Source: Hormiphora californensis (taxonomy: Eukaryota; Animalia; Ctenophora). Taken from it: a stretch of 64,000 nucleotides of DNA. The DNA is taken from positions 2,356,001 to 2,420,000 of the forward strand of contig CM035359.1 of assembly GCA_020137815.1 (NCBI GenBank). Direction: 5' to 3'. The notes under the pieces were generated by a model that was not told the DNA's origin, did not search any database, and worked only from the letters and a program-made list of their open reading frames with translations. Position numbers and translations under genes: made by a program. Positions 49,702-60,534 of the stretch are shown here, piece after piece (within the stretch, counting starts at the first letter, position 1; every line of letters starts with the position of its first letter).

Positions 49702-52700
49702 ATGATAACCGTTCTACTGATTCTTCTTAGTCCCACGTTCTCATCAGATTTTCCTTTTCCTTTCGTAAGTTCATTGAGTTAAAATGATTCCAATTTCCAT
49801 CAATGTCTACTGTGACTTCTAACTTTTCATTACCTACCAGGCGAACAACGAGGCCAAACCAAAGGTTGCATTTCGAGATAGAAAACTAAGCAAATATTTC
49901 GATTTGAGTGCTAATAAATGGGCGAATGCGGATTCTAGCCATCAGTTAAGCTATGCAACTGAGTTTTGTAAACAGGTCTACCCAAACAAAGGTAACTATA
50001 AAATTGTTGAAGTAGAATTTAAAACCGATCGCTTCTCAATTTATTCTAATGTCCTAATGTACACATTCAACTTGTGTTCACCACTGTGACCCTCCTCCCC
50101 AGATATAGCAAAAGCAGAGGCAGACTCGGACCTACAATCTCTATCGTTCTGTAGTGTAAAACAGCCTGATAAATGCAGAACCTTTCATAATATCATCACG
50201 TGGACATGTGGTAAGGACAGGGGAATATGTGACACGTGTGTATTTGACTTGTTTTGTTCAAACTTATTTTCGGGCGGGGCACGGGCTTTTTCAAACAGCT
50301 TCGAGCAAGGCAATATTTGACTGTCTCTGTACATACATGTCTTTGGTATATCTGTGTATTTGAGCGACTGGTAGTCAATCGGATCTCGAATTTTCCGACT
50401 TTTTGTTTCAGAAACATTCTGGGACATTTTAGTCTGGGACATTAGACCAACGACCTCTAGGCTAAAGACAGACTGACTACTGGGCTAAAGACAGACTGAC
50501 AGCTGGGCTAAAGACAGACTGACACTTGACAGCTGGGCTAAAGACAGACTGACACTTGACAAACAATGTTGTGTGAGATAAATACCGAGAATTCGGTGAT
50601 TATTAATTTTATAACCCCTGGTTCTATGAACTCGCCAATTTGAAATAATATGTTGTTTCAATATGCTCTCGGTTCATACTTTGATCGATTGAGCTCTATC
50701 GTGCCTAATCGGCACTATTAAACCCTACTAACTCCTAATCGGCACTATTGAACCCCCTCCCTCCTAACACCACTCCCCCCTCCCTCCTAACACCACTACC
50801 CCTCCTAACACCACTCCTAACACCACTCCCTTCAGTTCCCTCGTCAGAGCTATACACATCAGAATCCCCAACTGCAACTCACACGGGAGGCAGCTTCAAC
50901 AACGGCATGCCATTCAACCAAGAGTAAGCATCTTCAACGTTCTTTAGAAATTTTTTTAAACATTTTATCATTATATCGTTGGACAATTAAATCCCACAGA
51001 GGGGAATAGAACTGGTATAATTGGGTATATAATTGGGTATAATTGGGTTATCACACTCATATAATTGCAGCAATGAGAACCGTTGCGTAAATGAATCGAT
51101 TGAAACTGTACGTTTTGAGGAATGTACGCCCGTGGAAACTATTATCTTGCAAGATTGGTAAGGGGGAAGAGGGAAGGAAAGAGAAAGAAGGAGAAAAATA
51201 GGGAGGGATAGAGATAGGAGAGAAAAATAGGGAAGGATAGAGATAGGAGAGATAAAGATAAAGAGGGAGATAGAGAAGTTTTTATTTGCATTTTCTTAAC
51301 AATTAAATGCACTGGTCAGCCAGCATATATTCAAATCCTAACTCTCTCCCTCACTCAGTGGCGGTCCAAACCGGACATTTAGTGCAATAAAAGATATCGA
51401 GCCGTGTGATGTGACCCTCTCGGATCAAGACAGGGACGGAACATACAGTGGGTTTACCTACGCAGAGATACAGTGTTGCAGTATACACAGTGGGACAGGT
51501 GTGGATGATGGGACGAGAAATGGGGATTATAGTACTGCTTCGGTATGTGTGATTTTAATTAATTGTAATTAACAATCTAATTTTAATTAAAAATACTAGT
51601 AGGCCCGTTCGCCCTACGGGCGATTTTCGGGGAAATAGTAGCTTGATTAGGGAACGCTGACATCACATGCACCATCCGTTCCTAGCCTATCTCTCACTTT
51701 CTCCCTATACCCATGTTGTTTTACGCTCTGGGCTTCCTGACAATGTCAAGGTGCTAATTTAAGAGATCAATATCAGGGATCCCCTAGGGAGGTGCAGTGC
51801 TGTTTCAGAAACTCATCACGTGAAAACTTGGCCGCTATGTAGCCGATTCGGAGATTTCTATATCACCCTTGGGCGACGTTGGGTAAAGCTATCCGTAGTC
51901 GTTGATTGGCTCGCTTGAACACGTTGGTGTAATCTGTCATATTCTCTAGCCTGCTCCCTGACAGCAGCAGTTCTCCTGGGCCCAGATGACCGTTGCCGAA
52001 TAGCGCTTGGGGTTGAAGAGTTAGACATCAGGACAAAAGTAAAAGAATGCACGTGCAGAATTGAATTTCCCTTAGTACCCAAAACTGCAACTGGGAGTGA
52101 GGTTTCTAAGTTGCTCTAATAATTGCACGTGCAGGTGTAGTTGCTAGGTGATGTAGCACTGACAATTTGAATAGTAAGTAGTATGATAATGGGGTGGTCC
52201 TGCTGCAGAGTAATGATCTATATTGAAAGGGCCGCGGCTGAAACGCCAATGAAACCGGGGATCATCACCGCGACATCCGAATTTATCTGAGTCGGCTTTT
52301 TTTGTTGTTCGCTCGCTTTCAATATATTCTAATCTCCTCTAATTCTCCTTCAGCAAGAGGGGCACTTCGTGAATCCCTTCCTACCCAACTACACGGTGGA
52401 AACAGCAACAGAAGCCTCCCTTCCCGTTCCTCTGGATTGGTGCGCTCTAGGGGAGGTAGAGAAACAGAGGGAGATCATGTCACAACGGCTACAGAGTGAT
52501 ATCCAGAAGATGTATCCGAGTAACTCAAGTCAGGGAAACGGTTAGTTACATTTTATTAGAAATTGTTTCATTTCTAATATTTAAACTTTTTGTTATCACC
52601 AGTACCTCCCTTCCTTCCAATAACATATTTAGAAAAGGCGGGATTTTAAATTTATCTTTTGAATTGCAATGTTTGGTAATGGGTATTCAGCACAGGCGTT

Positions 52701-58700: not shown

Positions 58701-60534
58701 CTACCCCTCTCTAACCCCTACCCCTCTCTAACCCCTACCCCTCTCTAACTCCTACCCCTCTCTAACCCCTACCCCTCTCTAACTCCTACCCCTCTAACTC
58801 CTGCCCCTCTCTAACCCCTACACCTCTACAACCCCTACCCCTCTCTAACCCCTACCCCTCTCTAACCCCTACCCCTCTCTAACTCCTACCCCTATCTAAC
58901 CCCTACCCCTCTCTAACCCCTACCCCTCTTCAGGAGAAGATATGGACACATTACTAGTTCGGATCAAGGAAATCCAACTGCAACAAAACACTCAAGTTGC
59001 TGAGCTGTTCGGGGAACACTTTAGGTGCATGGTGGTTGATGTTGTGAACTTGAAAAACTCCTCAATGATGTTAATTCAAAAGGTAAAAACATCACCCTCA
59101 CCCCTCACCCCTCGCCACCCACAGTGTGTCCCACACCCCTCTCACCCCTCTCACCCCTCGCCACACCCCCCAATTCACCCAAATTCTAAAGATTTGTATA
59201 TCAGATGTCCCCGGTCCGACCATCATATCTCGATTTAACACAACTACCACTTTCCTAGTTGTCCATTGAAGTACTTACCGAGGAGCGCCGTGCTGAGTTC
59301 TTGTTCAATGTTGACCAACAGAGTGGGGAGATAAGTGAAGCAAAGAACAGATTCACCTCGCTGAGGGACAGGCTACTAAAAAATGAAGTTAACGATTTTG
59401 GATTTGACTATCGGGCCATAGTATCCCATTTACAGGTGACTATTTGATTGCAAATTTATTAAAACACCGATTACATAGTTAGTTTAAATCAGGAAATTGT
59501 GTCAGCGATTCTCTGTGTAATATCCCCTGAAATCTCTCCCAGAATGTTGAAGTGAAATTAAGGGCAATGTTGAAGGAATTAGAGGATCTAGAGACGGAGA
59601 TGGAGTGTGCCAATGGGGTGGAGTGTGGAACTGATGGGACCATATTTGAACCTCCTTTCAACCATCATCCCATCACGGTAATTATGTTATTACTAATTAC
59701 ACTAATTAAATTAGTGTCTGCCTAGATAATTAGTAATCAGAGTTGGTAATTATATCCCGTGCCCTTCTAGCTAGTTATTTAGTAGGTTTGGTTTGGTTTG
59801 GTTTGGTTCGACTGTACCTCGCACTGCGCCCCGAAGGCGCCTGGCTGACAACCCTGTTTTCTAAATGTGAAGGAGGCTTAGACTTCTTACTTTTTACTTT
59901 TCCAGATAACCAGATAACAACTTTAAAAATAATTCTCTATTTTTTCTCAGGATGCCCCCACGGAAGAGGAGACGGCCCCAACATTGTCTGAAGAGACCCT
60001 GATTGTAATTGTATCAGTTATATCTGCTGTTACCATTGTGGTGGCTCTCGTATTTTTCCTCATTGTGGTACGTTCAAATAGTCAGTTAATTAATGGGTTA
60101 ACTTATTAGTTAACTAATTGATTATGTAATAGGTTAACCCACTTAACTAATTAATTAATTAATATGTTAACTAATTCAATTGATTAATGGGTTGTTAGCC
60201 CTTTTCGCTATATAACCCCTTGGCCATTGAGAGAGCTGAGCTAATGGGGGGGGGGGGGATAGAACCAAATTCTCAGAGACTCAGGGACTCAAAGGGTCGC
60301 CCGTCGCTAATTTTACTTTCTTGTTATATAATCATCATTTTTTATCAAATTAACCCATACCATTCCCTCACACAGGTACGTAGAACGTTTGTAAAAAGTT
60401 CCTCTGGTCAGCGCTCAATGACTGCACACACCGATCTCCTAACGGCCCAGCAGTATGTCAGTTTTCTACAGAAGAACGGATATGCAAATCCAACCTGTCG
60501 GCTGCCACAGAAATATCTCAACGAAAAAGACTGA
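49702..60534 (+). CDS. APP: Amyloid precursor protein (APP/APLP)-like type I membrane protein, ~505 aa, 11 exons
   Basis: All exons GT-AG and phase-consistent (1518 nt): 49702-49764 (signal [14 protein letters not shown]), 49841-49991 ([16 protein letters not shown]; cf. APP EPQIAMF..GKW..QYCQEVYP), 50103-50210 ([15 protein letters not shown]), 50836-50923, 51359-51542 ([13 protein letters not shown]; cf. LLPC..FRGVEFVCC), 52354-52540, 58934-59082, 59259-59435, 59543-59677 (helical, E2-like position), 59951-60067 ([25 protein letters not shown]), 60376-60534 ([17 protein letters not shown]; cf. ERHLSKMQQNGYENPTY). Confidence 0.82.
50460..50560. repeat. Tandem repeat GGCTAAAGACAGACTGAC x4 in APP-like intron 3
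   Basis: Direct copies at 50461, 50483, 50506 and 50536. Confidence 0.85.
51596..52186 (-). mobile_element. Non-autonomous Helitron in APP-like intron 5
   Basis: On the minus strand: A|TCATACTACTTA... to ...TCGCCCGTAGGGCGAACGGGCCTACTAG|T. This gives the canonical 5' TC, 3' hairpin + CTAG, insertion at A|T and no TSD. Confidence 0.82.
53301..53410. mobile_element. ~110-bp MITE with CAGGAACCGACCGA TIR, carrying CCAAT boxes and GTCACGTGAC
   Basis: CAGGAACCGACCGA..TCGGTCGGTTCTTG. A second, truncated copy lies at 56229-56314 and a related motif array at 16708-16795. Confidence 0.8.
55509..57004 (-). CDS. Secreted 219-aa protein: signal peptide + Pro/Thr/Ala mucin-like stalk + ephrin-receptor-like (GCC2/GCC3-type) Cys repeat + Cys-rich C-terminal domain; nested in APP-like intron 6
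   Basis: Exons 57004-56939 ([22 protein letters not shown]), 56854-56659 (APVPVPTD..(PTPA)n), 56473-56327 ([34 protein letters not shown]), 56062-55964 and 55660-55509 ([38 protein letters not shown]). All donors are GTAAG, phases are consistent, total 660 nt. Confidence 0.9.
57620..58928. repeat. 18-bp minisatellite (CTCTCTAACCCCTACCCC-like)n ending at the APP-like exon 7 acceptor
   Basis: About 70 units, each with CTAAC plus a pyrimidine run. The last unit runs into CCCCTCTTCAG|GAGAAG (58933). The minus strand has GGGG runs. Confidence 0.95.

Follow-up and report, generated by a model that had tools for sequence, protein, structure and literature searches.

A strongly diverged gene of the APP family, altered in its sorting tail, from the ctenophore Hormiphora californensis

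Introduction

Do ctenophores carry an amyloid precursor protein (APP) family member? An earlier survey found the oldest members of the family to be cnidarian, and ctenophores have been stated to lack APP (PMC11405698, 2024). The latter study delimits the family in a broad sense that includes placozoans and tardigrades; placozoan APP had formerly been called absent by BLAST (PMC3865767). No report of a ctenophore APP was found in the literature searched, and the only paper found to address the matter claims absence. The locus considered here lies in a 64,000-nt stretch of Hormiphora californensis DNA (contig CM035359.1, positions 2,356,001 to 2,420,000; hereafter the window), in which an earlier note, made from the sequence alone, had proposed an APP homologue.

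Results

A 12-exon gene encodes a predicted type I membrane protein

The predicted gene lies on the + strand, from an ATG at 49702 to a TGA at 60534. Its 12 GT-AG exons join into a single open frame of 534 amino acids (aa), and all 11 introns read GT..YAG, with 7 to 11 pyrimidines within the 12 bases 5' of the acceptor. The exons are as follows.

Exon 1, 49702..49764, + strand: start codon, hydrophobic signal-peptide-like segment (hydropathy) and FPFPF, with FPIPF at the same place in relatives
Exon 2, 49841..49991, + strand: first half of the GFLD; Pfam APP_N E=0.009 by itself, under the cut-off, profile 1-49
Exon 3, 50103..50210, + strand: second half of the GFLD, with C88, C96 and C107
Exon 4, 50836..50923, + strand: linker between GFLD and CuBD
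Exon 5, 51071..51157, + strand: start of the CuBD-like domain, found by tblastn of relatives; C142, C155 and a C166 codon shared with exon 6
Exon 6, 51359..51542, + strand: remainder of the CuBD-like domain (C182, C205, C206) and a short linker
Exon 7, 52354..52540, + strand: start of the E2-like helical region, W-C257; in-frame alternative donor after 52519
Exon 8, 58934..59082, + strand: E2-like long helix, E-H318-F-R-C321; matches P. bachei P0001
Exon 9, 59259..59435, + strand: E2-like helices
Exon 10, 59543..59677, + strand: final E2-like helix, C420 and C426, start of the stalk
Exon 11, 59951..60067, + strand: short stalk and single TM helix (hydropathy peak 3.1 at residue 460)
Exon 12, 60376..60534, + strand: cytoplasmic tail with GYANPTC, and stop; 100% identical to P. 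bachei P0001; Pfam APP_amyloid E=0.0028, under the cut-off

Fit to relatives decided between 52540 and 52519 as the exon 7 donor and among 58934, 58937 and 58940 as the exon 8 acceptor; donor 52540 gives a Cys-to-Cys distance of 64, the same as in Bolinopsis. An alternative exon 2 acceptor at 49853 would remove 4 residues, and isoforms of Bolinopsis and Mnemiopsis show a 4-residue difference at this junction.

The single phase-consistent frame agrees with the earlier reading, but its count of 11 exons and ~505 aa does not hold. Because leaving out exon 5, which is symmetric in phase (2-2), yields exactly 505 aa, that reading most likely missed this exon, which supplies two CuBD Cys and part of the codon for another. 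Against a profile of 12 relatives, the 12-exon model aligned end to end (profile positions 5-521 of 521, 375 bits), whereas the model minus exon 5 scored 332 bits and was split in two pieces. In an RNA run, this gene was represented only by an 84-nt contig that overlapped exon 2 and differed from it at 3 of 39 bases; a search of the same run for the 3' exons found none. Hydropathy agreed with the proposed signal peptide, single TM and short tail, giving a type I topology with an N-terminal hydrophobic segment, one TM region near residues 454-490 and a tail of ~50 aa.

Orthologues occur in other ctenophores

The window protein is identical to a Pleurobrachia bachei protein at 134 of 138 residues, in agreement with the ctenophore origin suspected from the start. 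Full-length orthologues are present in Bolinopsis microptera (XP_063689407/XP_063689409) and Mnemiopsis leidyi (KAL5271045-7; gene ACHWQZ_G001634), where the sources label them "uncharacterized" or "hypothetical." The Bolinopsis and Mnemiopsis proteins are orthologous to the window protein along their entire length, with a near-invariant tail, but only ~35% identical to it; the distal part of their E2 region holds three Cys, versus two in the window protein. Prey or contaminant DNA, or a gene acquired late from another animal, is a highly improbable source: the P. bachei match speaks against it, as do the positions of the orthologues on 18-Mb and 13-Mb sequences from two lobate ctenophores, and the 32-35% identity between the window protein and these orthologues fits deep vertical divergence.

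Two contigs, L001 and L002, hold the whole APP-like frame without introns. Their comparison gave a dN/dS of 0.16, and the TM and tail differed by 17 synonymous changes and 0 non-synonymous ones; judged from these coding sequences, the ctenophore gene is under purifying selection. In a ctenophore-only tree, the window sequence fell on a long branch, and the tree was not used for placement. A metagenome scan with P. bachei P0001 gave no matches.

Intron 7 contains a nested antisense gene

The two halves of the gene are separated by a long intron.

Intron 7, 52541..58933, + strand: 6,393 nt; holds TC repeats, a 17-nt satellite and, in antisense, the nested gene
Nested gene, 55509..57004, - strand: exons 57004-56939, 56854-56659, 56473-56327, 56062-55964 and 55660-55509; GT-AG, open frame

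The five exons of the nested gene encode a predicted secreted protein of 219 aa with a TPAP stalk and 22 Cys, and its exon 3 passes the cut-off of Pfam Ephrin_rec_like (25 bits against 23.1). Given this 6.4-kb stretch, the 5' and 3' exon groups could belong to two Hormiphora genes, as might be read from the public P. bachei model P0001, which holds exons 8, 11 and 12 only, and from the lack of reads spanning intron 7. However, both halves lie in one frame in relatives (the intron-less contigs and the Bolinopsis and Mnemiopsis proteins), phases agree across intron 7 with no residues missing, and Hormiphora commonly has genes nested within introns (PMC8527503). We consider two genes scarcely credible and treat the locus as one gene.

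The E1 region is homologous to that of APP

Profile comparisons demonstrated that the E1 region (GFLD and CuBD) is homologous to APP. Pfam APP_N matched all six full-length relatives scanned above its curated cut-off (27.8-35.7 bits versus 22.1), and P0027 passed as well (36 bits). At E<=10, APP_N and APP_amyloid each matched 12 of 12 alignment members. Profile-profile comparison with the full E1 of APP gave a probability of 98.3 (E=2e-14, 158 columns), with ten of ten Cys in register. Three true APPs gave 43.3, 26.8 and 21.9 bits with the joined window model, which scored 27.5 bits over residues 21-110, the GFLD, against a named APP. With each of 3 APPs, the GFLD and the TM plus tail both outscored every one of 300 local shuffles; they likewise outscored all 40 column shuffles. 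Among PDB sequences, the top match of P0007 was full-length APP (E=7.4e-6); exon 2 alone gave chance matches only.

A search of 1.84 billion proteins returned 18 matches at E<=0.001, 14 of them new; ten of these were looked up, eight of which had no name. Three full-length matches lay beyond the ctenophore-type set, each with all four APP Pfam domains and two named APP/APLP2-like, and the best matches beyond that set were APPs. Sponges, choanoflagellates and bacteria contributed no identified protein to the 18, which is uninformative because cnidarian APPs were absent too. All domains lie in one polypeptide in the relatives.

These results support the APP-family homology proposed earlier, including a GFLD counterpart: four of its Cys are kept and the equivalents of C38 and C62 are both absent in the window protein and in the 9 relatives aligned with it. 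The paired loss had been offered as an argument for true homology. We rejected it as special evidence because a published alignment (PMC11405698) shows both to be missing from amphioxus and sea urchin as well.

Modeling points to a CuBD fold without histidines

The six Cys that follow the GFLD are in register with those of the APP CuBD (profile-profile), as the claim of a CuBD counterpart predicted. Folds were computed for the Bolinopsis orthologue, which shares 35% identity with the window protein. A CuBD-only model built from 9 ctenophore rows reached a pLDDT of 77.8, with 2 of 5 models confident. When it was compared with 48,161 chains, ranks 1-4 were APP/APL-1 CuBDs (Z 5.0-5.5, all below 8; rmsd 2.5-2.8 over 55-60 residues), and the next unrelated chain had a Z of 4.2. 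In a full-length fold, E1 had a pLDDT <55, and Foldseek ranks 1-5 were APP E1 at E>=0.037; neither the full-length nor the CuBD model gave a Foldseek match at E<=0.001. Against three bilaterian-type APPs, the isolated CuBD sequence profile did not outscore shuffles, and it had no APP match among PDB sequences. A search of the ESM Atlas with P0016 gave no match, and residues 20-200 of P0023 pointed to an APP_Cu_bd cluster at 0.79, which we treat as a lead only. The Cys register and the ranks of the CuBD-only model indicate that a six-Cys CuBD fold follows the GFLD in the ctenophore protein. There is no His between C142 and C206 of the window protein, and the copper-binding His of the CuBD are absent.

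The mid-region is likely an E2 domain

In the Bolinopsis orthologue, four helices (~31, 47, 34 and 33 residues) were confidently predicted at the place of E2. E2 sequence profiles failed to outscore shuffles when compared with three bilaterian-type APPs, the sole type scored, and the E2-like region of the full model retrieved generic helical bundles only, with no APP E2 among the best 50 matches listed. Of the checks suggested by the earlier note, Pfam thus recovered APP_N and, below cut-off, APP_amyloid, but APP_Cu_bd and APP_E2 each matched 0 of 12 alignment members; structure comparison recovered the CuBD but neither Foldseek significance nor E2. The proposed helical E2 counterpart is colinear but lacks a statistical match in sequence or structure.

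This failure of E2 in every sequence and structure test run favors a ctenophore-specific mosaic, in which a true E1 and an APP-like tail flank an unrelated helical bundle that replaced E2, making the protein an APP relative and not a full-architecture orthologue. Against this, domain order and both ends are as in APP, the four predicted helices occupy the location of E2, and the best HMMER stretch on a hemichordate APP (profile 24 to 353) passes through the E2 region. The ctenophore proteins also share a Cys before E2 helix A and an H-x-x-C at the His382 position with all 3 cnidarian APPs and both placozoan APPs of the PMC11405698 alignment (by eye); the spacing of this pair is 58-65 in ten ctenophore-type proteins and ~63 in Trichoplax (by-eye count). 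We therefore regard the mosaic as unlikely; position, helices and the Cys pair common with cnidarians and placozoans make E2 homology likely. By-eye alignment indicates that the window protein keeps one of the four His of the M1 copper site (site residues from PMC3747053), H318 being the His382 equivalent. A C257-C321 disulfide is predicted to staple the E2 region where bilaterian APP has half of the M1 site.

The cytoplasmic tail is homologous to that of APP but carries NPTC for NPTY

The intracellular domain is homologous to that of APP: with each of 3 APPs, the tail-only profile outscored all 300 shuffles, and TM plus tail gave an hhalign probability of 96.7. The Pfam APP_amyloid tail match was under cut-off in all proteins scanned. 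Of the proposed counterpart to QQNGYENPTY, the homology and the G-Y-x-N-P-T core stand, but the NPxY Tyr does not: the tail reads GYANPTC, without the last Tyr of YENPTY, and NPTC occurs in the window and in 12 of 12 alignment rows, several of them near-identical. The P0029 fragment has Phe at the Tyr682 position. Neither the window nor its relatives matched the Pfam beta-amyloid family, and the juxtamembrane stalk is unrelated by inspection.

Discussion

An APP-family gene, strongly diverged and with a changed sorting tail, is present in ctenophores. In Hormiphora, the 12-exon gene very probably encodes a diverged APP-family type I protein with a signal peptide, GFLD, CuBD fold lacking copper-binding His, likely E2, one TM and GYANPTC, which likely serves in adhesion or as a receptor. 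None of the three outcomes named beforehand as counting against this (no profile or structural match to APP E1 or the intracellular domain, RNA evidence for separate 5' and 3' transcripts, or a cnidarian or bilaterian source) occurred.

Relative to bilaterian and cnidarian APP/APLP/APPL/APL-1 (PF02177, PF12924, PF12925, PF10515), the ctenophore protein has the same domain order, sharing a signal peptide, four of six GFLD Cys, a six-Cys CuBD fold, a helical mid-region, one TM and, in the tail, a Q-x-N-G-Y-x-N-P-T core. It differs in having NPTC for NPTY, a CuBD without His, one of four M1 His, no C38/C62, no long acidic or Kunitz domain, a length of 512-538 aa and an E2 undetected by Pfam. Placozoan APP, as seen in Trichoplax and Hoilungia (PMC11405698 supplement), is likewise short (507 aa), lacks a canonical YENPTY and has an E2 Cys pair with nearly the same spacing; however, it keeps C38/C62 and lost the N-P-T core, whereas ctenophores keep G-Y-x-N-P-T.

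By analogy with the APP family, ctenophore APP would act in adhesion or as a receptor at the cell surface, and adaptors that bind the tail would govern its traffic. It may be displayed at the surface, shed its ectodomain and then be cleaved by presenilin, and a PTB adaptor such as Mint may bind the kept G-Y-x-N-P-T core; Mint and presenilin have both been reported from ctenophores. Because the NPxY Tyr is replaced, adaptors needing it would bind poorly. Amyloid-beta would not be expected from this protein.

The APP membrane-protein family likely dates to the earliest animals; if ctenophores are sister to other animals, APP moves to the animal ancestor. More tentatively, and with the balance leaning somewhat against it, the last common ancestor of living animals may have had a full-architecture, copper-free APP with a disulfide-locked E2; a copper site would have replaced the disulfide only in bilaterians, and ctenophores would have rewired the tail to an invariant NPTC, for a different adaptor or Cys modification. 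Under any rooting, APP no longer counts among the neural and synaptic genes that ctenophores are claimed to lack. A natural NPTC tail and missing copper ligands help to sort core APP features from later ones, and since Mnemiopsis is a laboratory animal, the ancestral job of APP, neural or in general adhesion and traffic, is testable there.

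Gene model

The APP-like gene occupies the plus strand at 49702-60534, where predicted splicing joins 12 short exons (63 to 187 nt) into a single open frame of 534 codons. All 11 introns follow the GT..YAG rule, with pyrimidine-rich acceptors. An earlier note had correctly located this gene and its frame but gave it 11 exons and ~505 amino acids. Because our model without exon 5 encodes exactly 505 amino acids, that exon was probably overlooked; judged from sequence comparison, it is real, since relatives match it in tblastn and the profile score of the window protein drops from 375 to 332 bits when it is left out. 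Intron 1 carries tandem acceptors at 49841 and 49853, 12 nt apart, and isoforms of Bolinopsis and Mnemiopsis differ by four residues at this same exon 1/2 junction, suggesting conserved alternative splicing. A 17-nt satellite of ~76 copies (57620-58929) reaches the exon 8 acceptor and provides its pyrimidine tract. In RNA run X1, compared with the window, an 84-nt contig covers 49865-49903 with 3 differences, and its loose ends read on by eye as a similar peptide; it probably derives from this exon in a related species.

Intron 7 (6.4 kb) houses an antisense gene:

55509-57004, minus strand, five-exon nested gene for a predicted 219-amino-acid secreted Cys-rich protein

The predicted product has a signal peptide, a TPAP/TDAP stalk and an ephrin-receptor-like Cys repeat; Pfam gave no match for two further Cys-rich exons. 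Genes nested in introns are described as common in Hormiphora (PMC8527503). An element of ~95 nt that contains CCAAT boxes as well as a CACGTG palindrome occurs as two diverged, oppositely oriented copies (53296-53400 and 56226-56320) and is probably a small dispersed repeat. Elsewhere on the plus strand, long open frames resemble by eye a LINE reverse transcriptase (46116-47976) and an LTR-type pol fragment (166-954).

Relatives in ctenophores

The last exon is identical to a Pleurobrachia bachei protein in EukProt, a partial model matching at 134 of 138 residues overall. Full-length relatives (512 to 538 amino acids) align end to end at 32 to 35% identity; they include Bolinopsis microptera XP_063689407/9, labeled "uncharacterized," and Mnemiopsis leidyi KAL5271045-7, labeled "hypothetical." The whole frame is intron-less in two JGI contigs from relatives, and both halves therefore belong to one transcript there. 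Between these contigs dN/dS is 0.16, with 0 nonsynonymous against 17 synonymous changes in the transmembrane segment and tail.

Homology to APP

The gene, from a Pleurobrachia-like ctenophore, almost certainly belongs to the APP family as a diverged member, as the earlier note had proposed. This assignment was made to rest on the two ends of the protein together with its order of domains, not on a single domain. For the GFLD, Pfam APP_N scored above cut-off in all six full-length relatives, and window exon 2 by itself reached E=0.009. The CuBD was not matched by sequence alone (Pfam, PDB-sequence profile search, and shuffle tests against three APPs). However, profile-profile alignment to APP spanned the whole of E1 (GFLD plus CuBD) at a probability of 98.3 and brought ten Cys into register, and a template-free CuBD model from nine ctenophore rows placed the CuBDs of APP and APL-1 at ranks 1 to 4 of 48,161 chains (modest Z of 5.0 to 5.5, rmsd 2.5 to 2.8; two of five models confident). 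In the tail, Pfam APP_amyloid matched 12 of 12 members, all below cut-off, and a tail-only profile outscored 300 of 300 shuffles against each of three APPs. The proposed QQNGYENPTY counterpart keeps the G-Y-x-N-P-T core of human APP but has Cys at the position of the last Tyr (Tyr687); an alternative alignment inserts four residues and brings KYL into line with KYF of APP.

A whole-protein profile search of 1.84 billion representatives returned 18 matches at E≤0.001. The full-length matches outside the ctenophore-type set were three complete APPs, from a sea urchin, a hemichordate and one unnamed source; the joined window model scored 43.3 bits against the hemichordate APP. Another match, P0036, is an unnamed 128-amino-acid fragment with a transmembrane segment and GYVNPTY tail that matches the ctenophore profile (probability 97).

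Four helices are confidently predicted where E2 is expected, but neither structure searches nor profile tests against three APPs gave a specific match. Read by eye, the PMC11405698 alignment shows in its three cnidarian and two placozoan rows a Cys two residues ahead of the column of His313 and the motif H-x-x-C at that of His382; its bilaterian rows lack this pair. The pair recurs in 10 of 10 ctenophore-type proteins measured (spacing, 58 to 65 residues), which supports, without proving, homology of the mid-region to E2. In the distal E2 region, relatives have three Cys (I-C and C-x-x-C); at 59325-59677 (residues ~376-426) the window protein lacks two of these and carries one at a new position, as if a disulfide had been rewired.

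Proposed function

The full APP architecture with E2, together with the role outlined here, is likely. The protein, with five N-glycosylation sequons, would be a type I surface glycoprotein. By family analogy, it may serve in adhesion or as a receptor, its ectodomain being shed before a presenilin cut, and its tail would direct its sorting. Ctenophores are reported to have both Mint and presenilin (PMC11405698, section 6). The Y687A mutant of human APP no longer binds RABGAP1 or NUMB, and its binding to SNX17 is weakened (PMC12489035), so with Cys at this position the adaptor set likely differs. The CuBD has no His, and one of the four histidines of the E2 copper site M1 (PMC3747053) is kept; the Cys pair, at the M1 half-site, is predicted to form a disulfide. 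No amyloid-beta segment was seen in the ctenophore protein, and Mnemiopsis BACE1/2 released no amyloid-beta from human APP (PMC11117577).

Published absence

In the open-access literature, covered with few of its supplements, our search turned up no earlier account of APP in a ctenophore. The accessible portions of PMC7003098, PMC2770060 and PMC5371672 hold nothing on it, and that of PMC3660159 takes cnidarians as the oldest APP holders with no mention of ctenophores. When three other APP queries, distinct from those of PMC11405698, were compared with 11 ctenophore proteins (assuming an 8-million-residue database), the lowest E-value was 8.4e-6, which would explain an earlier miss. False absence has a precedent, since APP was called absent from Trichoplax (PMC3865767) and later found. 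Ctenophore proteins already bear a precomputed PF02177 label; ctenophore APP was therefore latent in databases. The family is known and the ctenophore gene is new to it, contradicting the published absence of APP from ctenophores (PMC11405698).
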